A DNA stretch of 64,000 nucleotides from Gammaproteobacteria bacterium (GTDB lineage: Bacteria > Pseudomonadota > Gammaproteobacteria > CAJXQU01): NCBI GenBank assembly GCA_965238175.1, contig CBDEGZ010000003.1, positions 2,848,001 through 2,912,000 of the forward strand, given 5' to 3'. The notes below the pieces were generated by a model. That model was given only the letters and a program-made list of their open reading frames with translations. It was not told where the DNA came from and searched no databases. This document shows positions 6,524 through 33,511 of this stretch, piece after piece. How positions within the stretch are numbered: position 1 is the stretch's first letter; each line of letters starts with the position of its first letter. The position numbers were made by a program, and so were the translations under genes.

Positions 6524-7243
6524 TTATTTAATTCTTAAGACTCCCGTAACTTCGCTAGTCTCAAAGCCAATATTTACGGTTTTACCCTCATCATTTGTCC
6601 ACGGATTAAAATAATCAAAATCAGCGCCTTTTGAGTCTCTATATTCATTATTCACATTTATCATATTTTCCAATATCACTACATGACCAAAATCATACAG
6701 GATATGAATCTTCTTATTATCATAATAATCAGTACTTTTTGCTCCATTTAGGGCCAATTGAGGCGTGATACTTAAGTCAATTTTTTTGTTGTTTTCAAAC
6801 TCGGATATCGACTGAACTGTGTCTATTTTATAGGGTGAAATATTACATAAATCAAAATGGTATTGGCTTTTAATTCTATCTCCAATTGCACTTAAATGGT
6901 CTTTGTCGAAACAACTATTAAAAATTGAATCCCAATAGTCAGTAGATTTTGAAAAAGTATCATGATCTGGAAATCCATCCGGTTCAATCTCTTGTGTTAT
7001 GTATTGAATAATCGAACCTGCTGTTATAACGCAGTATCCATACGTAATTTTCTTTGCTGCATGCGAACCCATCTCATTCTTTGAGAATCTCGTTCTACAT
7101 AATATCTCTCCTTTCTCATTTATTGAGATCGGGATAATTTTTGACTCTATGTATGATGGTCCAGTCGCACAAACATTCCCATACAAAATCATACCCAAGA
7201 GAATGAGGATGAAGTATCTTTTATTGTTCACAAATTTTTTCAT
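6524..7243 (-). CDS. Hypothetical exported protein
   Basis: 239 aa with an N-terminal signal-peptide-like segment. Confidence 0.7.
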   Translation of the reverse strand: MKKFVNNKRYFILILLGMILYGNVCATGPSYIESKIIPISINEKGEILCRTRFSKNEMGSHAAKKITYGYCVITAGSIIQYITQEIEPDGFPDHDTFSKSTDYWDSIFNSCFDKDHLSAIGDRIKSQYHFDLCNISPYKIDTVQSISEFENNKKIDLSITPQLALNGAKSTDYYDNKKIHILYDFGHVVILENMINVNNEYRDSKGADFDYFNPWTNDEGKTVNIGFETSEVTGVLRIK

Positions 7244-10484: not shown

Positions 10485-11639
10485 CTATTCCTCACCAAAA
10501 GCGCCAGGGCGATGATAAATTTTGATTGATTCAAACAACGCTCGATAATGCGTCAGCTCCTCCTCATCAATCTCGCCTGCATGCCCCATTTTTAAGGAAG
10601 GTTGAGCTTGCGACTGAAAATCACCGGAGTGATATTGGTGTAATTCAAATCTTTTTTCATTACCCACTCCCCGGGTGATTAGGTAGATGGCTTTCTTTGC
10701 ATAACCGATATCACGTTCTTCGTCGTGAAATATCCTATTTCGAAATTCCCATATGACATATTTGATAGCTTCCGAGAGAGAGCCTGAAAGCAGCCAATAA
10801 CCGAAGAACGATTCGTAGCCATAGGTGTTTCGCTCTTTCCAGACTCTTTTCTCAATTAATTCTTGTAGGACTTTGTCATGAGTTGTGAGATCAATCCAAA
10901 ACCAGCGCGGTTCGTTTTTCTTTTGGTCCCACAGATCCTTATTGTGAAATATAATACTTATACCCTCTTCGCCCAGAGATGGCAGAGCCAGAATGACATC
11001 ATCAAAACAAAAACCCTCCTCTTTAGACCCCACCTCCATAGGCTTGAGGTGTTGCATAGACAGGATGAGTTTATCGAGGTCACGCTTATAATATTCCTTA
11101 CCATGAGGTCCAACCCGGAACTCGAAAATCTTACCGTTAACGTATTTAAAACCTCGGAGCTCATGCAGATCATGCAGATCATGCAGATCATGCAGATCAT
11201 GATCAATATTAAAGCTGAACAGAGCCGTCATCGCACCAAGATCAAACCGTTTCTGCGGCGGCCCATAAAGCTCAAGCCCCCAGTCATTTTCGTAGATCGC
11301 CCTAATTTCAGTCTCAAAGCGCACTTTCGTCATGACACCATCGCGCACGTGCACTTTGATGGACTGGTTTTGAAATTGTTGTCGCTCATGATAAGCAGAT
11401 TTACTTTCTTCAGGTATTTGAAACAATAGCGTCAAGCGAGGATCGTAGCTCATGGTGAAACGCCCCAGACACGCGGTTGCTCTCTTTTCATTCATGGTCA
11501 TGCTTTTTTCCGTAAGGTAGTGAAACCGTTCTGGCCCTGGTGGTAAGACCCCTTCTAATAAACCTCGTCCAAAAACAAGGGCGATGATGAGTCCCATAAA
11601 TAGCGTCGCAATGGCTGCAATCCATAGTTTTGCTTTCAT
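10485..11639 (-). CDS. Membrane-anchored protein resembling Tli4-type T6SS immunity proteins
   Basis: N-terminal TM helix, TACLGRF and GFCFD motifs; internal HDL repeat. Confidence 0.5.
   Translation of the reverse strand: MKAKLWIAAIATLFMGLIIALVFGRGLLEGVLPPGPERFHYLTEKSMTMNEKRATACLGRFTMSYDPRLTLLFQIPEESKSAYHERQQFQNQSIKVHVRDGVMTKVRFETEIRAIYENDWGLELYGPPQKRFDLGAMTALFSFNIDHDLHDLHDLHDLHELRGFKYVNGKIFEFRVGPHGKEYYKRDLDKLILSMQHLKPMEVGSKEEGFCFDDVILALPSLGEEGISIIFHNKDLWDQKKNEPRWFWIDLTTHDKVLQELIEKRVWKERNTYGYESFFGYWLLSGSLSEAIKYVIWEFRNRIFHDEERDIGYAKKAIYLITRGVGNEKRFELHQYHSGDFQSQAQPSLKMGHAGEIDEEELTHYRALFESIKIYHRPGAFGEE
11161..11201. repeat. 9-bp tandem repeat TCATGCAGA x4.6
   Basis: Directly visible; encodes HDL repeats in the minus-strand ORF. 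Confidence 0.95.
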
Positions 11640-21650: not shown

Positions 21651-21986
21651 TCAGTGCAACGAGTCCGGTACTTCAACTTCCTGAACTAACACCCAAGGAG
21701 CGACAACCGTCGCCCAAAATAAAGGATCTTCCTCGTTCCAACGACGTGCATCCTCTTCCATCACCCGCTCCACCTCACCACTGGTTAACCATCGCTCAAC
21801 AGACTCCTTGTTATCTTCCGCAAAAGACATCGCCACTTCAACTAAATCAAGCCCCTGCTCAACCTTGATAAGCACACCGCGTGCATAATGCCGCTCTAAC
21901 TCCTTCCAGACAACCTTACCTGTCTCGGCATTTAGTTTGTCTTTCATGTCTATTTCTGGGTCTACTTGTTGATTTTGATCTGTCAT
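21651..21986 (-). CDS. DUF2288 family protein
   Basis: KLNAETGKVVWKELERHYARG...WATVVAPWVLVQ. Confidence 0.85.
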   Translation of the reverse strand: MTDQNQQVDPEIDMKDKLNAETGKVVWKELERHYARGVLIKVEQGLDLVEVAMSFAEDNKESVERWLTSGEVERVMEEDARRWNEEDPLFWATVVAPWVLVQEVEVPDSLH

Positions 21987-22220
21987 AACAATCTCGGTGG
22001 TTATACTATTGATAGATCATAACATTCTGAAGGTAGCGTGGATCATTACTGTCAGATCTCTTGATGCGGCACATCGGGGTTTTCTGATTAGCACAAAATA
22101 AAACCACCAGTGATTAAGCTGGGTCTTTCGGCTGCTTTCGGACGATAAGGTTAAAATAAACTTCAGAGACTGCACAGGAGTCTATCTTAGTGTGCATCAT
22201 GAGATGAAATTCATGATTAT

Positions 22221-22236: not shown

Positions 22237-22389
22237 TTCCAATCATAATAATTTTGGTATAAATAAACCTTAGGAAAAAGACTCACTAGTTAACTTATAA
22301 AAACAAAAATTTAAAAAAATAATTATGAAAAAACCAGATACATCTATACAAATGAATATTTCATGAAGGGACTAAAATTTTAGCTGGCC

Positions 22390-22505
22390 AAAAAGTAATA
22401 AGCCCCCACGAAGAGGGCTTTGGTCGCATAGAAGCGTTGCCTACGAAAAATTCATTTCATTGGTATGAAAAGACAATCAATAGACCTTAGTCGGTTACAC
22501 TAAGG
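22390..22505 (-). ncRNA. tracrRNA
   Basis: Anti-repeat 22481-22501 matches the repeat 20/21; minus-strand TATAAT at 22511-22516; 3' hairpins including a terminator at 22400-22420 with a U-tract. Confidence 0.85.
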
Positions 22506-22532
22506 CTAACATTATACATGAGGAGATCAGCA

Positions 22533-25500
22533 ATGAGCAAGAAAGTTCTCGGCCTTGATTTAGGCAGTAACTCAATAGGATGGGCTTTACTAGAGGAAGA
22601 AAATAGTAAGTTGAACAACATTATCGCTCTAGGAAGCAGAATCTTTACCAAAGCAGTTGAAGAAAAAACACCCACACCAAAAAATGTTAAAAGACGTGAT
22701 GCAAGGTTAGCCAGACGAGTGATTCAACGCCGCTCACACCGCAAGCAACGGATGCTGAATTATTTGGTTAAGCTTGACTTGTTACCCAGTGAAATACAAG
22801 GACACAGTCAACCCGAAATTATTTTAAACGATCTGGGCGACCCTTATTTATTACGTGCTAAAGCACTTGACCATCGTCTTGAGTCACATGAACTAGGACG
22901 GGTACTACTCCATCTGGTTCAGCGTCGTGGCTTTTTGAGCAATCGCAAAACATTATTAGGTGACATGGTTAATGATCCAGATGTTCTCGAAATTCTCACG
23001 GAATTGGAAGCTGACGACGATAACTCATCAGAAAAAGCAAAAGAAGAAACTGCATTCAAGAAAGATATTAGTGAGCTTAGAAATACTATTTCCGAAGAAG
23101 GTTATCGGACTCTAGGTGAATACTTAGCATCATTAAATAAACATGACTGTAAAAGAAATCGCAGCCGTGAAGGGGGGCATCTAAGAACAGATCGCCAAAT
23201 GTATCGCGAAGAACTGGATCTGATATGGAAAAAACAAAAGTTATCTCATTCGCTCTTATCAAATGCTATTAAAGAACAAATTGAGAAAATTATTTTCTAC
23301 CAGCGCCCGCTTAAATTACGATCTGACAGAATAGGGAAATGTTCTCTGGAACCCACAAGAAAACGTGCAAACATTGCTCGATTAGAAGTTCAAAGATTTC
23401 GTTATCTTCAAGATATTAACAACCTGACTTATTTCGATCCATGGGATGAAACAGAAAAAAACTTAAGCTCCGAACAAAAAGAAAAAATGGTTGACCTATT
23501 CGAAAGCCAACCCACTATAACATTTCCAAAAATAAGAAAAACGCTGGGTTTTGATAAAAAACATGAGTTTAATTGTAGAAGTTTAGACCCAATCTGACAC
23601 ATCACTAAATCAAGCGGAGCGTAGCGACGCTTGATTTAGTGAGAGTTACCCGCTTTGATGTAACTGCAACGTAAACATCAAAACACAAAGAGGTAACTCT
23701 CATGATTCATACTAATGACAAAGTTATAAAACATAAAGTTGGTCTACTCAATCTCGCTGAAGAACTCGGCAATGTCTCAAAAGCCTGCAAGATGATGGGT
23801 TTGTCCAGAGATACATTTTATCGCTACAAAGAAGCGGCTGATGAAGGCGGTGTAGAAGCCTTGTTTGATCGTAATCGGCGTACCCCAAATCTTAAAAACA
23901 GAATCGACCCGGCTATTGAAACCGTTGTGCTCGAGTATGCACTGGAAGAGCCCGCACATGGTCAAACGCGCACCAGTAACGAGCTGCGCAAACGGGGAAC
24001 ATTTGTCTCACCCAGTGGCGTTCGTTGTATCTGGCTTCGTCATGGTCTTGCTTGCTTTAAAGATCGCCTGAAGGCATTGTCTGATAAGGTAGCTGGTGAA
24101 GGCTTGATCCTCACTGAGTCTCAAGTCGCGGCGATGGAACGCAAGAAAGACGACGATGAGGCTTGTGGCGAGATAGAGACGGCACACCCTGGTTATCTTG
24201 GCTCGCAAGATACTTACTATGTCGGTACTTTCAAAGGCATTGGTCGGGTTTATCAACAAACGTTTGTTGATACTTACAGCAAGGTCGCTCACGCGAAACT
24301 GTACCCGACTAAAACACCGATTACGGCAGCTGACATGCTCAATGACCGCGTCCTCCCATTCTACGAACAACAACGTTTGCCTATGTTGCGCATTTTGACA
24401 GATAGAGGGACGGAGTATTGTGGGCGAGCTGACCAGCATGATTATCAGCTTTATATGGCGTTGAACAATATCGAACACACCAAAACCAAGGTCAAATCAC
24501 CTCAGACGAATGGTATTTGTGAGCGATTCCATAAGACGATCCTCAATGAGTTTTATCAAGTCGCTTTGCGTAAGAAAATTTACCAATCGATTGATGAACT
24601 GCAACTCGACCTTGACGAATGGTTGCTCAAATACAATACTCAACGAACTCACCAAGGCAAAATGTGCTGCGGGAGGACGCCGATGGAAACACTCATCGAC
24701 GGACAAGCTATCTGGAAGGAAAAGTTTTTGAACTAAACTTAACCTGACAGTCGGTTACAGAAAAAGGGGTAACTGTCAGATCAAGTCTGAATTTCTACAG
24801 TTTAATCTTGAAAATGGGAATAAAAAACTTAAGGGCAATATTACTGCTTGTGAATTGAAAAAAGTTATATCCGATTGGAATGATCTTGGTTCTGACTCTC
24901 AGTATAAACTTGTTGAAGATCTTCTAACTATTCAGAAGAAATCCACTCTGAAAAAACGACTTTTAGATCACTGGGGTTTTGATCCAAAAATTGCTGTAGA
25001 ACTTTGTTTACTTGAGTTTGAACCTGGCCACAGTAGCCACTCAATTAAAGCCATCAATAAACTTCTTCCTTTCCTTAAGGAAGGGGAAATCTATTCCAAT
25101 GCCAGAATCAAAGCAGGATATGGTTATGAAATAAAAGAGATAGATCTTATGGAGCGTCTGGGCATACCTCCTGAAATAGCCAATCCTATTGTTCAAAAAG
25201 GGCTGCACGAGCTTCGTCGATTGGTTAATGCCATTATTGCCGAATATGGCAGACCAGATGCTATTCGTATTGAAATGGCCAGAGATCTGGAAATGAATGC
25301 CAAACGCTATAAAGACTTTCTCAAACAACAAAAGACTAACACTCAAGCTAATGATAAAGCCACTGAGAAGTTTCAAGAAATGGGACGGAAATCTCCACAT
25401 CTCAAACTTTCAAAATACCCCAGCCATTCTGACAAAATAAAGTATCGGTTATGGAAAGATCAAGATCAGCGCTGTGCTTATAGTGGTAATTCCATTGATC

Positions 25501-26864
25501 TGGCAACGCTGTTTAGTGCTGAAATAGATATTGATCATATTCTTCCCTATAGCCAATCACTTGATGATTCATACATGAATAAAGTTGTTTGTTATACAGG
25601 AGAAAATCGCTACAAAGGCCAACGTACTCCTATAGATGCCTTCGGCGGAAATGAAGAAAAGTGGGAACAAATTTTTCAACGAATTAATCGATGGGATAAA
25701 AGATTCAAAAGTAAAAAAGCACGTTTTTTTCAAACAGCAGCAGATCTTCAACAACGTGATTTCATCAGTAGCCAACTCAATGATACTCGCTACATGAGTC
25801 GAGTTGCGCAAGACTATTTAAAACAACTAGGTGCAGACATTAGTGTGAGTAAAGGAATAACAACCTCATGGTTGAGACATCAATGGGGATTAAATAACCT
25901 CATAGGAGAAACCAATAAAAAAGACCGAAACGATCATCGTCATCATGCAATTGATGCTGTAGTTATTGCCTGTGTTGACAGAAGCTTCTATCAGAAGTTA
26001 ATAAAAGAAGCCAAAGATTTGGAGCGAACACATTCATCATTGCACATGAAAGATCTCCATTTTGATCCTCCATGGCCACATCTGCGAGATGAACTAAATC
26101 AAAAGCTAAGCAATGTCATCATTTCTCATGCACCACAACGTAAACTTAGTGGTGCTTTACATGAAGAAACGGGCGTCGGATTTATCGAGTCAAAAGGCGC
26201 TGTCTATCGGGCAAATCTGAATAGTGATTTTAAAGAAAAACAGATTGATAAAATTATAGATGATGAAGTCAGGGAAATTATACGAAACCATTTAGGTAAA
26301 TATAACAATAATCCCAAGGAAGCTTTTGCTGAAAGGCAACCTGTTTTACATAAAGATGGTAAAACACCGATCAAACGGGTACGCATTTTGCAATCTAAAA
26401 CTACACGAGAAAAACTTGATGAAACAAAATTTGGTGTAAAAAACAAAGACGGCAAAGTTTTTAAATGGCTTGCTTATGGAAATTTGCACCATGTCGAAAT
26501 TATCAAGAATAAAAAGACTGGAAAATATAAGGGTGAATTTGTAACAACAATGGAAGCCCATCACAGAGCAAAAGGAATCGGTATGCAAAAGCAAAAAGTA
26601 ATCAAAACTGATCATGGCAGTGATTATGAGTTCTTAATGGCCTTGCATATTAATGACCTGGTAAGTGTAGAAAAGGATAGCGAACAGATTTTTTATCGAA
26701 TTCAAAAATTAGATTCAGGTTCAAATAGAATGGTTTTGAGGTTACATACTGCATCAACACTTGGTAATAAAGATGAAGAGATATATGTTTCAATTAATGA
26801 AAAGTCATTTACGGATTGGAATTTAAAAAAACTACAGATAAATGTCATAGGAAAGATTTTCTAG
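22533..26864 (+). pseudogene. cas9: Type II-C Cas9 interrupted by IS481 (1032 aa when rejoined)
   Basis: RuvC-I LGLDLG, Arg-rich bridge helix, RIEMARD, HNH DIDHILP, HHAIDA; halves rejoin in frame as HEFNLENGNKKLKGN. Confidence 0.96.
23574..24799 (+). mobile_element. IS481-family element copy 3 (transposase 23702-24736)
   Basis: 7-bp TSD GTTTAAT at 23567-23573 and 24800-24806. Confidence 0.96.
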
Positions 26865-27766
26865 TGATCAAACGCATTATCGACATCAGCGAACAAGCCT
26901 ATATTCATATGAAACACAGGCAGCTTCTGATCGATAAAGAAGGTGAAACTATCGGGCAGATCCCGATAGAAGATTTGGGTGTTCTAATTTTGCAACACAC
27001 TGCAATAGTCATAACCCAGGCAGTGATCATCGCTTGTCAGGAAAATAATGTAGTACTAGTTTTTTGTGACTCTCGACATCTGCCCTATTCTGTAGTCTTG
27101 CCTATTAGTGAGGGACATACACTACATACAAAAGTACTACGACAACAACTAACCGTAACCCTGCCAACAAAAAAACGTTTATGGCAGCAAATTGTAAAAT
27201 CCAAGATAAAAGAACAAGCCAACACTCTGAGTCTAGCGAGTAAAGATAATAAAGTATTATTACGACTGACAGAAAAAGTAAAAACTGGCGATTCAGAGAA
27301 TCATGAAGCCCAGGCGGCTAAAGTATATTGGCGGCTATTGTTTGGAGATGAGTTTCGACGCAATGTGGATGCTGAGGGACTAAATAGCGTATTAAATTAC
27401 GGCTATGCAATTATGCGTGCAATGGTAGCAAGGGCATTGGTTGGCAGTGGCTTACACCCTGCGATTGGGTTGCATCATCGCAATCAGTACAATGGTCTTT
27501 GTCTTGCTGATGACATTATGGAGCCGTTCAGGCCTTGGGTTGACCTGGCTGTTTACAAGCTATTTGTAGATAACAAACAACTGGAGATCAATACTGAAAT
27601 AAAGCAAGCACTGTTAGGCATGTTGAGTGAAAAAGTGATCTGGAAAGGGGAAAGCCTGCCTTTGATGGTCGCTTGTCATTCTTTGACTGCCGATCTGAAA
27701 AGAGCTTATCAAAACTCAAAAGAAAAACTTTGTTTTCCTCAATTGGAAAACAGGATCGCAGCTTGA
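26864..27766 (+). CDS. cas1: Type II Cas1
   Basis: GTG start overlaps the cas9 stop; IPIEDL, NHEAQAA, LNYGYAIMR, GLHH, LADDIMEPFRP. Confidence 0.95.
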   Translation: MIKRIIDISEQAYIHMKHRQLLIDKEGETIGQIPIEDLGVLILQHTAIVITQAVIIACQENNVVLVFCDSRHLPYSVVLPISEGHTLHTKVLRQQLTVTLPTKKRLWQQIVKSKIKEQANTLSLASKDNKVLLRLTEKVKTGDSENHEAQAAKVYWRLLFGDEFRRNVDAEGLNSVLNYGYAIMRAMVARALVGSGLHPAIGLHHRNQYNGLCLADDIMEPFRPWVDLAVYKLFVDNKQLEINTEIKQALLGMLSEKVIWKGESLPLMVACHSLTADLKRAYQNSKEKLCFPQLENRIAA

Positions 27767-28090
27767 ACTTTGGTGGACTGAATACCATGTGGGTTACCGT
27801 ACTTTTTGATCTCCCCACCGACACAAAAGAAGCACGAAAACAATACACAATTTCGGAAATTTTTACTTGATGATGGCTTCACCATGATGCAATACTCAGT
27901 CTATATTCGACATAGCGCCAGCGAAGAGAATGCACAGGTTCATATCAAGCGTGTAAAAGCAGCATTGCCTGCTGATGGTGAGGTTCGAATCTTCAAAATT
28001 ACCGATAAACAGTTTGGAAAAATAGAAGTGTTCTATGGAAAAAGACAGCAAACTATCGAAGAAACCCCGAAACAACTCCTGTTTTTCTGA
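27763..28090 (+). pseudogene. cas2: Cas2, frameshifted
   Basis: MWVTVLFDLPT...RKQYT and QFRKFLLDDGFTMMQYSVY lie in different frames; break at 27841-27851. Confidence 0.9.
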
Positions 28091-28139
28091 ACAAAGAAAC
28101 AGGAGTTTCTCTTTTGGATCAATCAATTACTTGCATGGT

Positions 28140-29606
28140 AGTGTAACCGACTAAGGTGTAGAAGTTTAGACCCAATCTGACACATCACTAAATCAAGCGG
28201 AGCGTAGCGACGCTTGATTTAGTGAGAGTTACCCGCTTTGATGTAACTGCAACGTAAACATCAAAACACAAAGAGGTAACTCTCATGATTCATACTAATG
28301 ACAAAGTTATAAAACATAAAGTTGGTCTACTCAATCTCGCTGAAGAACTCGGCAATGTCTCAAAAGCCTGCAAGATGATGGGTTTGTCCAGAGATACATT
28401 TTATCGCTACAAAGAAGCGGCTGATGAAGGCGGTGTAGAAGCCTTGTTTGATCGTAATCGGCGTACCCCAAATCTTAAAAACAGAATCGACCCGGCTATT
28501 GAAACCGTTGTGCTCGAGTATGCACTGGAAGAGCCCGCACATGGTCAAACGCGCACCAGTAACGAGCTGCGCAAACGGGGAACATTTGTCTCACCCAGTG
28601 GCGTTCGTTGTATCTGGCTTCGTCATGGTCTTGCTTGCTTTAAAGATCGCCTGAAGGCATTGTCTGATAAGGTAGCTGGTGAAGGCTTGATCCTCACTGA
28701 GTCTCAAGTCGCGGCGATGGAACGCAAGAAAGACGACGATGAGGCTTGTGGCGAGATAGAGACGGCACACCCTGGTTATCTTGGCTCGCAAGATACTTAC
28801 TATGTCGGTACTTTCAAAGGCATTGGTCGGGTTTATCAACAAACGTTTGTTGATACTTACAGCAAGGTCGCTCACGCGAAACTGTACCCGACTAAAACAC
28901 CGATTACGGCAGCTGACATGCTCAATGACCGCGTCCTCCCATTCTACGAAGAACAACGTTTGCCTATGTTGCGCATTTTGACAGATAGAGGGACGGAGTA
29001 TTGTGGGCGAGCTGACCAGCATGATTATCAGCTTTATATGGCGTTGAACAATATCGAACACACCAAAACCAAGGTCAAATCACCTCAGACGAATGGTATT
29101 TGTGAGCGATTCCATAAGACGATCCTCAATGAGTTTTATCAAGTCGCTTTGCGTAAGAAAATTTACCAATCGATTGATGAACTGCAACTCGACCTTGACG
29201 AATGGTTGCTCAAATACAATACTCAACGAACTCACCAAGGCAAAATGTGCTGCGGGAGGACGCCGATGGAAACACTCATCGACGGACAAGCTATCTGGAA
29301 GGAAAAGTTTTTGAACTAAACTTAACCTGACAGTCAGTTACAGAAAAAGGGGTAACTGTCAGATCAAGTCTGAATTTCTACAACTAAGGCCTACATGCAA
29401 TTCACAACTGAATCCCTCTTCTAACTGACCATCTGGAAAGTGTAACCGACTAAGGCCTACATGCAATTCACAACATCTCATGCTGCACATCGACAACCAT
29501 ATTCAGTGTAACCGACTAAGGCCTACATGCAATTCACAACCCTTCAAGGTGTAGTTGAACCGGGTATTCTAGTGTAACCGACTAAGGCCTACATGCAGTT
29601 CACTAC
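28140..29606 (-). CRISPR. CRISPR array: four 36-bp repeats, three 30-bp spacers; first repeat split by IS481
   Basis: Repeat AGTGTAACCGACTAAGGCCTACATGCAATTCACAAC at 28140-28156+29390-29408, 29439-29474, 29505-29540 and degenerate 29571-29606; strand inferred from the anti-repeat and the GTTG start. Confidence 0.95.
28157..29382 (+). mobile_element. IS481-family element copy 4 (transposase 28285-29319)
   Basis: 7-bp TSD ACTAAGG inside the CRISPR repeat. Confidence 0.96.
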
Positions 29607-29614
29607 TAGTACAC

Positions 29615-29640
29615 CAAACAACGTTTCCCTTCAAATCACA
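29615..29640. repeat. 26-bp direct repeat, left copy
   Basis: CAAACAACGTTTCCCTTCAAATCACA; 23/26 identical to 31375-31400. Confidence 0.7.
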
Positions 29641-29661
29641 GCGGATTGACTAATAGCATTA

Positions 29662-29868
29662 TTAATCGCTAGCCTGATCTATTTTTATTTGCGATTCTGG
29701 CGATAACTTGAGCACACCTGTTCTTACGGCAGCACCAACTACGCGATCACCAATTGATTGTGGCAGATCATCCGGCCAGTTCGATACAGCTTGCTTAGTT
29801 ACCCCGACTGCTGACGCGACTGATCTATATGTTGAGCCGAACAATCCCCTTGCCCTTTTCTTCTTCAT
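29662..29868 (-). CDS. Cro-like HTH protein
   Basis: 68 aa, FGS...VASAVGVTKQAVSNWP; divergent from an XRE repressor. Confidence 0.8.
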   Translation of the reverse strand: MKKKRARGLFGSTYRSVASAVGVTKQAVSNWPDDLPQSIGDRVVGAAVRTGVLKLSPESQIKIDQASD

Positions 29869-29876
29869 AGATCAAG

Positions 29877-29934
29877 TAAATCATTATTGACTATTTCTGT
29901 CAATTTGCATTGATAGAAAATCAAGTATTCTTTA
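29877..29934. promoter_or_regulatory. Three operator-like boxes (OR-like)
   Basis: TAAA-N6-TTGA 29877-29890, TCAA-N6-TTGA 29900-29913, TCAA-N6-TTTA 29921-29934. Confidence 0.65.
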
Positions 29935-29950
29935 CTTTTAGCAGGACAGG

Positions 29951-30394
29951 ATGTTAATTATGAGCGATGTCGCGGAAAGAATTCTAAAAATAAGGAAGTA
30001 CATGAAGTTGACACAACCTCAATTTGGTAAGCGTGCTGGTGTGTCAAAGCAAGCTGTTTCACATTGGGAAAATGGTTTAGCGAAGCCCGACCATGAGTCG
30101 CTAAGAAATCTGGAAAAAAATTCTTACATTAACCCAGATTACATCACCGATGGCACCGGGGAAATCTTTAAATATCTGCAAGGATCTCCCGAGAGTTTTG
30201 CATTAAAAAATCCTGTTAAAGATTCTGCACAACTGGAAAACATGAACACAGCTGATTGGCTATGCAGAAGATGGCTTGACTTACCACTATCTGCGCGCAA
30301 GTGTATTTGGGAAATATGCAGATCTCATGTTGGCGAAACTATTGAGCGTCGTTTTGAAGTCAAATACGTTAAAGATGATAAACGAAGTACTTAA
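29951..30394 (+). CDS. CI-like XRE-family repressor with no evident S24 peptidase domain
   Basis: RILKIRKYMKLTQPQFGKRAGVSKQAVSHWENG...INPDYITDGTG. Confidence 0.85.
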   Translation: MLIMSDVAERILKIRKYMKLTQPQFGKRAGVSKQAVSHWENGLAKPDHESLRNLEKNSYINPDYITDGTGEIFKYLQGSPESFALKNPVKDSAQLENMNTADWLCRRWLDLPLSARKCIWEICRSHVGETIERRFEVKYVKDDKRST

Positions 30395-30794
30395 ATCACC
30401 TTTTACTTCTATAGAAAAAACAGCACTTTTGAGTAGCCACCAAGATTAATTGACATAGTCTGTCCATCTTCAGTACGGCCGGTGATATCCTCTAATAGTT
30501 AATTCATCCCACTTAGCCAACTGATTATTAATTTTTGCGGTTATTCAGGCACAACCGTCTTTAGTTGTTTTAATTGGAGTTTTTTTATCCACCTTTATTG
30601 TTGTTGTTTTATTTGGGAAATCGTGACCCAAACGCAAAAAAATTCTTTACCCTCTTCTGATAAATATATCAATAATGAAATATCTGATTCCAATGTTATT
30701 AAGATCAAATTCTTCAATGTAAGTATACGCCTGTCATTCAACCTCAATTATCTTTTGATCAGTTATCTCAATTAAAACCGACATAATCGCAGAG

Positions 30795-30861
30795 TCAAAA
30801 ATGCTTGACTCGCAATCAATTATTATTTACCTTAATGGTCAATCAAGTCAACTTAAATTGA
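30795..30861 (+). promoter_or_regulatory. Three operator-like boxes (OL-like) overlapping a sigma70-like promoter
   Basis: TCAA-N6-TTGA 30795-30808 and 30848-30861, TCAA-N6-TTTA 30816-30829; TTGACT-17-TACCTT. Confidence 0.65.
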
Positions 30862-30874
30862 TAATAGAGAACAC

Positions 30875-31189
30875 ATGGCTGACAACAAGTTACAGATACA
30901 AATTGAATCGAACGAAATAAAACAAATGTTCGACGAAGTAGAAATCAACATGATCCGTGCTGGTCAAGGATCTGAATTATGGAACGCGATGGTGAAAATA
31001 TTTAGTCTTCCCAGCTTTATCGATCCGCTTATTAAAAGCAAATTCATAACCCACGCCAATGGTAAGACAGAATTATTGACTTGGCCATCCGCTGCATTTA
31101 AACGCATACACGCTGCAGTCATCACAAGTAATATCGATGTCCTTCACCACGAGCATCAAGACCTGCTCAAAAAAGCAGCTAGACACTGA
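30875..31189 (+). CDS. Hypothetical protein downstream of the OL-like operators
   Basis: 104-aa ORF with promoter-like and operator-like sites upstream. Confidence 0.65.
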   Translation: MADNKLQIQIESNEIKQMFDEVEINMIRAGQGSELWNAMVKIFSLPSFIDPLIKSKFITHANGKTELLTWPSAAFKRIHAAVITSNIDVLHHEHQDLLKKAARH

Positions 31190-31259
31190 GCATGCAACGC
31201 TTGAACACAAGTCACTTAAAGATATCTAAACCAGCCAAATGAAGAGCATCATTAGCAAT

Positions 31260-31385
31260 ATAAGCGCACTGACGGGTTGACTCAGAATGACGCTTGAGCC
31301 AACCGACTATTTTCAGTGATCCACGCCGCAGTTCTCACAGGTGATGTCGATACTTTGCTCGTCGAAAGTGTAAGCAAACAACAAT
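31260..31385 (-). pseudogene. Phage-type zinc-ribbon protein remnant
   Basis: FDEQSIDITCENCG then a stop and frameshift, followed by VGWLKR. Confidence 0.35.
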
Positions 31386-31400
31386 TTCCTTCAAATCACA
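31375..31400. repeat. 26-bp direct repeat, right copy
   Basis: CAAACAACAATTTCCTTCAAATCACA. Confidence 0.7.
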
Positions 31401-31470
31401 ATTTTGTGATTTCACAAAAAATCGTGAACCGATATACTTCCAAGATAATTTTCAATTAACGATCAATATC

Positions 31471-31611
31471 ATGCACAACAAAAACAAATGTAAGCGTTGT
31501 CAACAGACCCGTATGGTACTAACGGCGATGATTGTGGTTATCGTTCTTGCCGTTGTTTTTCTGGGTATAGAATCGAATACGTTTTTCTCAAAAATTTTCT
31601 CGACTCCCTAA
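31471..31611 (+). CDS. 46-aa CxxC plus single-TM small protein (not in the ORF track)
   Basis: MHNKNKCKRCQQTRMVLTAMIVVIVLAVVFLGIESNTFFSKIFSTP. Confidence 0.45.
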   Translation: MHNKNKCKRCQQTRMVLTAMIVVIVLAVVFLGIESNTFFSKIFSTP

Positions 31612-31922
31612 ATACAACTTGGAGGTTTAGGAAGACCCGCTATGCGCGCAGATTGCCTGACCGGTGCATCTGGAAATAATTTATACAAATAACGACTTTT
31701 GCCTTTATCTTCACCCAGTTTTTTTCCTATCGCTTTACCTAAAATTCGCATGATGGGTGTGATGCTATATTGTTGATAATAGTTCTGCACAAAATGAATG
31801 ATTTCCCAGTGATCTTCCGTTAATTTGATCTCTTCTTGCTGAGCAATTTTTTCAGCAACTGCAGGAGTCCAATCCTGTTGATTGATCAAAAAACCATCTT
31901 TTGTTGTTTTTACTAACTCCAT
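31608..31922 (-). CDS. tusE: Sulfur-relay protein TusE (DsrC family)
   Basis: DGFL...WT...LTEDHW...LFP...AGLPKPPSCI with a single C-terminal Cys. Confidence 0.88.
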   Translation of the reverse strand: MELVKTTKDGFLINQQDWTPAVAEKIAQQEEIKLTEDHWEIIHFVQNYYQQYSITPIMRILGKAIGKKLGEDKGKSRYLYKLFPDAPVRQSARIAGLPKPPSCI

Positions 31923-32212
31923 GTCAATGTGTTGTTATATTTGACGGTTAATTTTACAAAATCAGAATAATCAACGAGTTCTACATTGTTGATAATTTGG
32001 TCAGCTTTTATTGCTCTTGCTTTTAAATCTGCCTGAAGCACAAACACATTTTCTGTCGCCTTGATCAAATCTTCGTTTTGATTATTTTTTTTCGCAGCAA
32101 TAACTGCATTTTCGATCAAAATTATTGCATCGTTTTTTTGTAATACAGACAGACTCGTTTGCAGAGAGGATCGCATCATGGGTGAGCTATTAATAATATG
32201 CAGTGTAGACAT
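31913..32212 (-). CDS. tusB: TusB/DsrH
   Basis: LHIINSSP...DLKAR...VDYSDFVKLT...W. Confidence 0.88.
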   Translation of the reverse strand: MSTLHIINSSPMMRSSLQTSLSVLQKNDAIILIENAVIAAKKNNQNEDLIKATENVFVLQADLKARAIKADQIINNVELVDYSDFVKLTVKYNNTLTWS

Positions 32213-32227
32213 GATCAGTATTAAAAG

Positions 32228-32620
32228 TTAATCGTTAAAAACAAAGTCTTGTTGGTTAATTATTTTGCCTAATTGATCAGTATTTATTAATTTAACGGTG
32301 ACTAATAAATCTGACGTTTTTATTGCTCTTTTTTTCAGTGATTCTTCCTCGACATAAAGTTGATCAATTTCATAATCTTGCCAGGCATGAAATGCAGGTG
32401 AGAAATTTTTTATTCCAATTTCCGCAGGGTCCTGATCACGCATAATCTCTAATACGCCTTCATCCATAAACACTAAACTAACCTTATGTTCAAATGCTGA
32501 AAGCGCATAAGCCATGTCCAATGCTTCTTGCGCATGACTGCTTTGGTAAGCTGATTTACGATTAATAAACAAACAGGTTTTTTGTTGGTTCATTTCATGC
32601 TCACTCATCTTAGGCACCAA
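32228..32620 (-). CDS. tusC: TusC/DsrF
   Basis: AQEALD...VFMDEGV...YVEEESL; operon position. Confidence 0.88.
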   Translation of the reverse strand: MVPKMSEHEMNQQKTCLFINRKSAYQSSHAQEALDMAYALSAFEHKVSLVFMDEGVLEIMRDQDPAEIGIKNFSPAFHAWQDYEIDQLYVEEESLKKRAIKTSDLLVTVKLINTDQLGKIINQQDFVFND

Positions 32621-32966
32621 AGGTAATCACGCGATCAGAAACGGTAACCGCTTCGCTCAAGCGGCCAAGTGTGTCGATTTTAAATCCTGGCGCGAGTCTC
32701 GTTCCGACACCTCTTTTTTTTGCGACAGTAGAGCAGATGATCAAATCCAGATTATTATCGGTTGCAAGCATTGACCAATTTTTGATCACATCTCGATCAT
32801 CCTGTGGTGGCTCCGCTGTATCAACACCATGCCATGCACCATCAAAATAAAAAAACACCTGGACAAGATCGTGCCCCTCTTTTATGAGTGCATTGGCAAA
32901 TTTACAAGCTGTATCAGACGACTGTGATTGATACGGGCCATTGTTGACTATGATGGTGAATTTCAT
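32610..32966 (-). CDS. tusD: TusD/DsrE
   Basis: GPY...VFFYFDG...ICSTVAKKRG with the conserved Cys. Confidence 0.88.
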   Translation of the reverse strand: MKFTIIVNNGPYQSQSSDTACKFANALIKEGHDLVQVFFYFDGAWHGVDTAEPPQDDRDVIKNWSMLATDNNLDLIICSTVAKKRGVGTRLAPGFKIDTLGRLSEAVTVSDRVITFGA

Positions 32967-32983
32967 GCGTATAATATGATCAA

Positions 32984-33511
32984 ATGCTTAATACTTTGAA
33001 AACCCTATTTACCTCGTTTATGGAAATTTGCCTGTTTCGTAGCCAACCACAAGATCTCCCAGCTTCCAATTTTTTTCTTGGAATGCTGGTGCTACTTTCA
33101 ATCGTCTTTGGTTTGTTAATCAATCTGATCAACTTACCATTCGAACACGCGATGTTAGCGGTGATCTTAAATCTGTCTGTGATCGCCATTATCACCCAGT
33201 TAGTTCTTAGACTCTACAATAAATCCTTGCGCTTCAATCAGACACTTATTGCTCAATTAGGCACTGGGATCGTAATAGCAGTCATTGCTATGCCTGTCAT
33301 TGTTATGCTGCAATATGCTGAGGATAACAATGTAAATATGGCTCCAGGAGCGATTCTATGGCTGATTCTTTTTACCTGGGAGCTCTCAGTCAATGCACAT
33401 ATTCTACGTCATGCACTTTCCACCAGCTTCGTACATGGGTTTGTGATATCAGTATTATATCCTTTGATCTATTTTCGACTGTTTGAGTTTCTAATTCCTG
33501 CACAACCATGA
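32984..33511 (+). CDS. Conserved membrane protein
   Basis: Multiple TM helices, PQDLP motif; overlaps the mpl start. Confidence 0.75.
   Translation: MLNTLKTLFTSFMEICLFRSQPQDLPASNFFLGMLVLLSIVFGLLINLINLPFEHAMLAVILNLSVIAIITQLVLRLYNKSLRFNQTLIAQLGTGIVIAVIAMPVIVMLQYAEDNNVNMAPGAILWLILFTWELSVNAHILRHALSTSFVHGFVISVLYPLIYFRLFEFLIPAQP

Follow-up and report, generated by a model that had tools for sequence, protein, structure and literature searches.

A 1.8-kb cI/Cro-type island beside a decaying type II-C CRISPR array is probably an immunity region left stranded by a lambdoid temperate phage or a phage-like element

We examined a 1786-bp island in a gammaproteobacterial genome, in which a Cro-like gene and a divergent cI-like gene lie close against the last repeat of a type II-C CRISPR array. 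Coordinates are positions in the window, the whole 64-kb stretch analysed (G000:C3:2848001-2912000). In our assessment the island is probably the stranded immunity region of a lambdoid temperate phage of the P22/Qin type, or of a phage-like element, lying in a hypervariable interval together with a decaying II-C locus. The kind of system is a known one, a cryptic lambdoid immunity module of the DicA type, and what is new here is an example whose sequence is an orphan. An ordinary prophage relic, not a new form of CRISPR control, is the most likely identity, and we regard the link to CRISPR as purely geometric. The island comprises the following features, given as coordinates, strand where one applies, and description:

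29615-31400, the island, 1786 bp
29615-29640, plus strand, left 26-bp direct repeat
29662-29868, minus strand, Cro-like gene, 68 aa, with Pfam P22_Cro, PHROG, Protein Data Bank (PDB) and phage matches
29877-29934, putative right-operator-like (OR-like) cluster between the divergent genes, with boxes at 29877 (one mismatch), 29900 (perfect) and 29921 (one mismatch)
29960-30394, plus strand, repressor gene of the cI/DicA type, 144 aa (147 aa if read from the ATG at 29951), with an HTH_3 N-terminal domain
30395-30794, AT-rich spacer (GC about 0.33) with open reading frames (ORFs) of 50 aa only on both strands and one isolated one-mismatch box at 30440
30795-30861, putative left-operator-like (OL-like) cluster, with boxes at 30795 (perfect), 30816 (one mismatch), 30843 (one mismatch) and 30848 (perfect)
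30875-31189, plus strand, ORF104, an orphan of 104 aa, placed where a PL (leftward promoter) operon has its first gene
31283-31351, plus strand, decayed second ORF104-like fragment, the counterpart of 31068-31138, with indels and an in-frame stop upstream
31375-31400, plus strand, right 26-bp direct repeat

The two regulatory genes diverge across a gap of 82-91 bp. A preceding sequence-only reading of this DNA had described divergent cro-like and cI-like genes with near-identical recognition helices, and re-reading of the ORFs bore this out, with 9 of 14 aligned residues identical between the two helices. In the protein collection the Cro-like protein carries the precomputed label PF14549 and has one relative (64 aa, 52% identity, on a 934-bp contig). 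It matches phrog_409 (‘transcriptional regulator’) in PHROGs and, in the PDB, 1rzs (‘Regulatory protein cro’; E 0.0054), which we take to be P22 Cro. Just two matches were found in the phage collection, both of them Ralstonia phages (49% identity over residues 1-49).

The cI-like protein scores 32.4 bits against Pfam HTH_3 (cut-off 23), and the best solved relative of its N-terminal domain among PDB chains is the P22 C2 repressor (E 3.2e-8). Matches were found in 117 phage records, led by organism names in Salmonella (34), Escherichia (22) and Enterobacteria (13), yet none of the 117 extends over at least 80% of the protein’s length; P22 c2 is among the 15 phage matches listed (41.9% identity, residues 4-65). 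NCBIfam returned RstR and DicA below threshold, and for the helix-turn-helix (HTH) part only. Peptidase_S24 had no match in the protein at E up to 0.1. This peptidase domain defines the lambda and P22 repressors and is absent from DicA; since it is missing here, the repressor is, to judge by its sequence, a member of the DicA-like non-cleavable subclass. Scans of the island ORFs (Pfam, PHROGs, NCBIfam) likewise found no integrase, replication or structural gene, so that the earlier description of an island lacking all of these, with a repressor lacking an autocleavage domain, was upheld. The PADLOC scan of the island proteins gave HTH-level matches only. Pattern scans of viral contigs with all three island proteins, and of contigs from genomes and metagenomes with the cI-like protein alone, gave only matches that were short, HTH-limited or N-terminal. 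The AlphaFold2 model of the cI-like protein has a mean predicted local distance difference test (pLDDT) score of 49.1, with the HTH part alone above 70 and residues 54-144 below 50, and that of ORF104 has a mean of 50.0; both models were too poor for a fold search.

Copies of the palindrome TCAA-N6-TTGA occupy both regulatory gaps. The sequence-only reading had placed three such boxes between the divergent genes and three more before 30875 in an OR/OL layout, which holds at the sequence level (29877, 29900 and 29921; 30795, 30816 and 30848). The OR-like boxes have start-to-start spacings of 23 and 21 bp; in the OL-like cluster, which ends 14 bp before ORF104, box 30843 overlaps box 30848. Three of the four perfect sites in the window fall in the island (29900, 30795 and 30848), and when up to one mismatch is allowed the island holds 9 of the window’s 60 sites, against about 1.7 expected pro rata. 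The 3.33-Mb chromosome contains 157 perfect boxes, among which the sole pair within 80 bp and the sole triple within 1.1 kb are those of the island; by a rough Poisson estimate, the chance of such a perfect-box triple somewhere in the genome is about 0.2. The motif was chosen after inspection of the region, and we allowed for this in weighing the result. What speaks for the boxes as putative operators is their placement in two regulatory gaps at a spacing of 21-23 bp, together with the one-mismatch copies.

Among known switches, the layout is matched most closely by the dicC-dicA-dicBp region of Qin, a cryptic prophage of E. coli K-12. There dicC (minus strand), a short gap, dicA (plus strand), a second gap and the ydfA operon (plus strand) follow one another in an order and on strands identical to those of the island. 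The repressor is short in both and has no autocleavage site (135 aa in DicA, 144 aa in the island), three operators per gap are described there and three boxes per gap are predicted here, and Qin likewise offers a switch that has outlived its phage. The excerpted text of the source on Qin describes DicA (135 aa, without an Ala-Gly cleavage bond) as analogous to P22 C2 and DicC as analogous to P22 Cro, places three operators in each dic intergenic region, and presents DicA/DicC as a bistable switch silencing the toxic dicBF operon (bioRxiv 10.1101/2023.04.14.536235). The island is nevertheless not an orthologue of the Qin region: the cI-like protein is 35% identical to DicA over 62 HTH residues only, and DicC gives no alignment. 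The two also differ in extent (Qin is annotated at about 20 kb, whereas 1.8 kb is left here), in the second gap (166 bp in Qin, 480 bp in the island), in ORF104, which is unrelated to ydfA-dicF-dicB, and in the 26-bp direct repeats that flank the island.

Likenesses to other lambdoid systems are partial. The island’s gene order mirrors the cro-OR-cI...OL-N order of lambda. It resembles P22 immC in that the cI-like N-terminal domain is nearest to P22 C2 chains, the Cro-like protein matches P22_Cro and the two proteins have near-identical recognition helices, and its boxes share the 4-N6-4 palindrome geometry that the earlier reading quoted for the phage 434 operators. Unlike P22 and 434, however, it has no S24 peptidase/RecA-cleavage domain and no surrounding phage genome, and its half-site, TCAA, differs. 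The closest Cro relatives in the phage collection come from the Ralstonia phages YO158_1 and YO105_4 (Dinavirus), in one of which the ORF at the Cro position diverges from a 186-aa cI-type ORF and is followed by further ORFs on its own strand, an ordinary immunity region. These records differ from the island in being unannotated and GC-rich and in having a full phage context. The suggestion of a retained prophage immunity module, one of two made in the sequence-only reading, is thus supported by the P22 c2-like N-terminal domain, the P22_Cro match, the Ralstonia Cro relatives and the Qin-like order of genes and operators.

ORF104 begins 480 bp downstream of the cI-like gene, behind its own box cluster. 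It had no match in the phage collection, nothing below E 0.8 in the PDB, nothing in Pfam, PHROGs, NCBIfam or PADLOC and no usable match in the ESM Atlas, and a word search returned ORF104 itself only. A HMMER search of 1.84 billion representatives returned ORF104 itself and three long repetitive proteins (5-10 stretches each, with no coherent Pfam family), which we rejected as spurious. ORF104 is nonetheless probably a real gene, because its 3′ part recurs with frame support in the decayed paralogous fragment at 31283-31351: the two align with a score of 47 (shuffles: mean 18.4, standard deviation (sd) 2.8, maximum 29), and 9 of the 18 aligned codons encode identical residues, 4 of them with synonymous differences.

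The island DNA had no match in the 40 relatives searched, nor in phages and plasmids by blastn. As there is no match among relatives and the cargo of the surrounding interval is variable (see below), we consider the island to be of foreign origin. Searching the organism’s own genome with the island proteins by tblastn returned no paralogues; by sequence, therefore, the resident prophage is not homo-immune with the island. A 13,372-nt contig of the public run X1 spans 29511-33000, that is, the island and both of its junctions, with zero differences, so the junctions are not specific to the assembly. Runs X1 and X2 derive from one sample, possibly the source of this genome, and no RNA run is listed among the public runs. 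In runs X3-X5, compared with 27000-33000, no other strain, empty site or joint across the island was found, the coverage consisting mostly of relatives of a local insertion sequence (IS).

If the island still operates as a DicA-type module, a dimer of the cI/DicA-like protein would bind palindromes of 14-18 bp with the core TCAA-N6-TTGA. At the OR-like cluster it would shut off the cro-like promoter, and at the OL-like cluster it would shut off ORF104. The Cro-like protein would bind the same boxes in another order of preference and shut off the repressor gene, and the two proteins together would form a bistable switch. Because the repressor has no RecA-cleavable domain, only an antirepressor, instability of the protein or its dilution would lift repression, as for DicA. 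For the host, such a module may provide immunity to phages of the same operator specificity while keeping ORF104 silent, and any transcription running from the cro-like gene into the array would be a by-product of position.

Several observations weigh against the assignment to a lambdoid immunity region. The Cro-like protein matches Pfam P22_Cro with 29.0 bits (E 9.4e-7), 1.2 bits under the curated cut-off of 30.2, and gave no BLASTP alignment with DicC. The C-terminal 75-80 residues of the cI-like protein have no relatives in any collection searched, the ESM Atlas returning for this part only matches below 0.9 and without a family, and ORF104 has no credible relative in any collection searched. 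A mobile element other than a phage could also have been the source, since the repressor’s C-terminal half and ORF104 are both without relatives. The term prophage is founded on about 130 residues of HTH similarity and on the layout, with no integrase, excisionase, replication or late gene left. Promoter-like hexamers are not enriched (6 in the island, 7.0 expected from shuffles), and candidates in the OR region reach at best 8/12, which makes the assignment of boxes to promoters guesswork. No orthologue of an island gene was found, and so no dN/dS could be computed. Finally, simple decay of a 40-kb prophage that left both direct repeats would need two deletions each ending at an attachment site, which is awkward.

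The setting of the island was mapped as follows:

21654-22010, minus strand, conserved 118-aa gene
about 22385-22505, minus strand, candidate trans-activating CRISPR RNA (tracrRNA) of about 120 nt, upstream of and divergent from cas9, with a -10 box, an anti-repeat and a terminator hairpin followed by a T-run
22518-23597, N-terminal part of cas9 (ORF reading)
23574-24799, first local copy of an IS of 1226 bp
24855-26864, C-terminal part of cas9
26816-27766, cas1
27806-28090, cas2
from 28140, CRISPR repeat 1, split by the second IS copy
28157-29382, second IS copy, 99.8% identical to the first
starts at about 29440, 29506 and 29572, CRISPR repeats, the last degenerate at 2 positions
29571-29606, minus strand (from the tracrRNA anti-repeat), last, cas-distal CRISPR repeat with its 2 degenerate positions
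31471-31611, first ~46 codons of a lipoprotein gene that has 278 codons in the nearest relative, G002
31608-31922, minus strand, tusE, followed by tusB, tusC, tusD and mpl

The interval from the 118-aa gene to tusE carries different cargo in every species of the genus examined (this genome, G000, and G002, G003, G005 and G006):

G000, a broken cas locus with its array, and the island
G002, a cas9 stub with cas1, cas2 and four repeats, an IS3-like element, part of the 118-aa gene, katG and the lipoprotein gene
G003, a WYL gene and a gene for a 262-aa protein, paired beside tusE; the 5145-bp contig ends inside the WYL gene, leaving the 118-aa gene out of view
G005, a WYL gene, the lipoprotein gene, a 166-aa ORF and a 339-aa protein with a TIR-like start (judged by eye, not scanned)
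G006, a WYL regulator (PADLOC WYL, E 9e-39) and a 262-aa protein resembling a non-specific endonuclease by eye (not Pfam-scanned)

In G004 other genes follow tusE, and no 118-aa gene turned up in the stretch retrieved. The katG gene lies 1.7 Mb away in G000, and G006 keeps an intact cas locus elsewhere. We therefore see the island as one more piece of cargo in a recombination hotspot, and the simplest explanation for its lying against the array is that the DNA between them was lost. The region is eroding, as indicated by the decayed paralogue of ORF104 and the truncated lipoprotein gene, which in G000 has lost about 890 bp right up to the tusE stop codon. In G002, the cas remnant, the array and the IS3-like element lie between the 118-aa gene and a 126-nt piece of that gene with 73% identity (L014 (G002:C28) 7006-7131 and 10527-10652), an arrangement that by its sequence looks like the leftover expected from an integrating element that carried a copy of its target.

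Decay has also reached the cas locus. Its cas9 is interrupted at about codon 352 by the 1226-bp IS, which leaves ORFs of 359 and 669 aa where the G006 orthologue is a single ORF of 1022 aa. The IS encodes one 344-aa rve-type transposase, and both local insertions are flanked by 7-bp target duplications. The genome holds 57 full-length copies at an identity of at least 99%, which points to a recent IS burst.

The island could instead be inert debris, with genes that are intact only through the youth of the fragment and with neither repressor made or needed. The erosion around it (the 57 near-identical IS copies, the split cas9, the truncated lipoprotein gene and the decayed ORF104 paralogue) favours this, as does the want of any orthologue that might show selection. 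Against it, all three reading frames (68, 144 and 104 codons) are open, and the boxes have kept their form, three as perfect palindromes and the rest with one mismatch. The codon-usage scores of the three ORFs (0.07-0.13) are near that of cas2 (0.12), although this log-odds measure failed to separate real genes from antisense ORFs of similar length. On balance we consider inert debris unlikely.

A second alternative takes the direct repeats as its starting point, with the 26-bp copies serving as attL and attR of a small integrative or cis-mobilisable element, a 1.76-kb unit that moves, or moved, with a recombinase supplied in trans. That the island is bounded by 26-bp direct repeats and starts 8 bp past the last CRISPR repeat, both noted in the sequence-only reading, was confirmed: the copies match at 23 of 26 positions (88%), and the CRISPR repeat ends at 29606 where the left copy starts at 29615. 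The copies thus stand exactly at the borders, 8 bp from the array on one side and about 9 bp from resumed homology to G002 (at about 31409) on the other. They are the only two sites in the 3.35-Mb genome that match the 26-mer with three or fewer mismatches, and local alignment of the two island flanks scores 43, above every one of 500 shuffles (mean 20.2, sd 3.2, maximum 35). The end of the right copy is overlapped by a perfect palindrome (31393-31412; 9-bp arms, 2-nt centre), a form that recombinase core sites often have.

The repeats do look like attL and attR in sequence, but a recombinase, an empty site and a third copy are all absent. The empty site proposed from the 26-bp repeat failed to appear: nothing beyond the pair exists in this genome, and the repeat is missing, at the same mismatch limit, from all 40 other genomes searched, of which 6 belong to the genus and 34 to other families of the class; the homologous place in G002 has no sequence like it. 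No contig of run X1 joins across the island, which is weak evidence because only contigs are available for that run. No matching palindrome accompanies the left copy, and the G002 sequence corresponding to 31393-31412 is not palindromic. We rate such an element as quite improbable. The palindrome also overlaps the -35 hexamer of the region’s best promoter-like site (31411-31438, 10/12), which stands before the truncated lipoprotein gene. Other origins of the repeat were tried and rejected. A longer duplication fails, as identity past the 26 bp is about 55% with gaps, and a relic CRISPR repeat is not significant (best match 23/37 at 31368, where chance sites in the window reach 22). An Xer/dif-type (IMEX) element, suggested by weak NCBIfam RstR and VC1465 matches, was set aside on inspection: the repeat does not look like a dif site and does not occupy a single chromosomal site.

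The sequence-only reading had also raised the prospect of a switch co-opted to control crRNA (CRISPR RNA) output and an effector gene: the phage-derived pair would act as a conditional upstream promoter of a leaderless II-C array and would also control ORF104 as effector. The geometry is suitable. The anti-repeat of the tracrRNA candidate (21 nt, matching the plus-strand sequence of the repeat at 20/21) indicates that crRNA is read from the minus strand, so that, as claimed earlier, the cro-like gene is transcribed in the crRNA direction and read-through would enter the array in sense. The 55 nt between the cro stop (29662) and the last repeat (29606) hold no intrinsic terminator and no significant structure (folding z +0.66), for which reason read-through from the cro-like gene is possible in principle. 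A transcript coming from there would meet the last repeat as its first array element, and the first spacer it met would be spacer 3, which matches the resident prophage.

Weighing against co-option, cas9 is split by an IS with its 7-bp duplication and repeat 1 by the second copy, leaving no functional effector. The island is unique to this genome among the 40 relatives, and as far as homologues of its proteins exist they occur only in ordinary prophages. According to a review (PMC5965381), the repeats themselves contain the promoters from which type II-C crRNAs of N. meningitidis and C. jejuni are transcribed, and the repeat here ends, in the crRNA sense, with a -10-like TACACT. The expected synteny of cro/cI with II-C arrays was not seen either, at neither of the 2 other arrays in the genus (G002 and G006), whose adjoining genes include no relatives of the island proteins, and at none of 13 II-C arrays elsewhere in the class. 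For the latter, 400 genomes were scored, of which 36 (G000 included) had a Cas2 match; of the 16 best matches on usable contigs of other families, an array follows cas2 in 15, and in 13 the contig continues for at least 1.5 kb past the array, the scan covering the 3 kb after each of these 13. The 53 non-nested ORFs in these stretches (at least 55 aa, ATG starts, GTG and TTG ignored; 73 of 126 dropped as nested) include no Cro-family match, one HTH_3 protein (beside Fic and PIN/MazE toxin-antitoxin genes) and one HTH_17 protein. We consider co-option very unlikely.

A variant places the capture of the switch before the IS burst, at the transcription-upstream (cas-distal) end of the array, where it would have served as a conditional promoter. 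Once the repressor was lifted, for instance by an antirepressor that an infecting homo-immune phage brought in, read-through from cro would flood the cell with pre-crRNA, prophage-matching spacer first. If true, phage parts would have been turned into a phage-sensing boost of CRISPR output, but we give this variant hardly any credence.

An anti-CRISPR cassette, in which a mobile element that had to survive beside a II-C system would have left ORF104 as an anti-Cas9 protein governed by an Aca-like HTH regulator, is about as remote: a small orphan gene, inverted-repeat boxes ahead of it, an HTH regulator and a neighbouring II-C locus do recall Aca-controlled operons, and a resident prophage matched by spacer 3 at 29/30 would be tolerated if interference were blocked, but the gene order and operon structure differ, there are two opposed regulators, ORF104 is unlike any known protein (no similarity in the PDB below E 0.8, in PHROGs or in PADLOC), and the IS in cas9 and the protospacer mismatch already account for tolerance. 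In the usual layout acr lies directly upstream of aca in one operon, whereas here 480 bp separate the HTH gene from ORF104, which is downstream of it and behind boxes of its own.

If the island is indeed the immunity region of a lost phage, it adds another cryptic module that has outlived its phage, as dicA/dicC has in E. coli, and does so in a very compact, sequence-orphan form, with two regulators, six boxes and a single payload packed into 1.8 kb. The module could find use as a small orthogonal bistable switch, and the case recalls that gene pairs beside CRISPR arrays are often mere neighbours in a hotspot. Greater importance would follow only if array read-through or an anti-Cas9 activity of ORF104 were real, and nothing here points that way.

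Some minor observations concern the array and the gap before ORF104. The tracrRNA candidate has no tracrRNA match in Rfam; it is kept in G006, including an altered hairpin loop, and has a folding z of -2.6. Spacer 3 (29541-29571) matches the organism’s own chromosome at 29 of 30 positions (G000:C3:2266840-2266869), within a 458-aa ORF that has a tape-measure gene about 5.6 kb upstream and so belongs to the tail region of the resident prophage beside uvrC. Its one mismatch lies 6 nt from the repeat-proximal end of the protospacer, which we take to be the side of the protospacer-adjacent motif, the usual type II arrangement. The AT-rich spacer at 30395-30794 holds no recognisable gene and no Rfam family at gathering score. 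The best promoter-like site within the island (30851 to 30822, minus strand, TTGACT-18 nt-AATAAT, 10/12) points leftward from the OL-like cluster into the 480-bp gap, where, judging from this site, an antisense or small RNA is possible.

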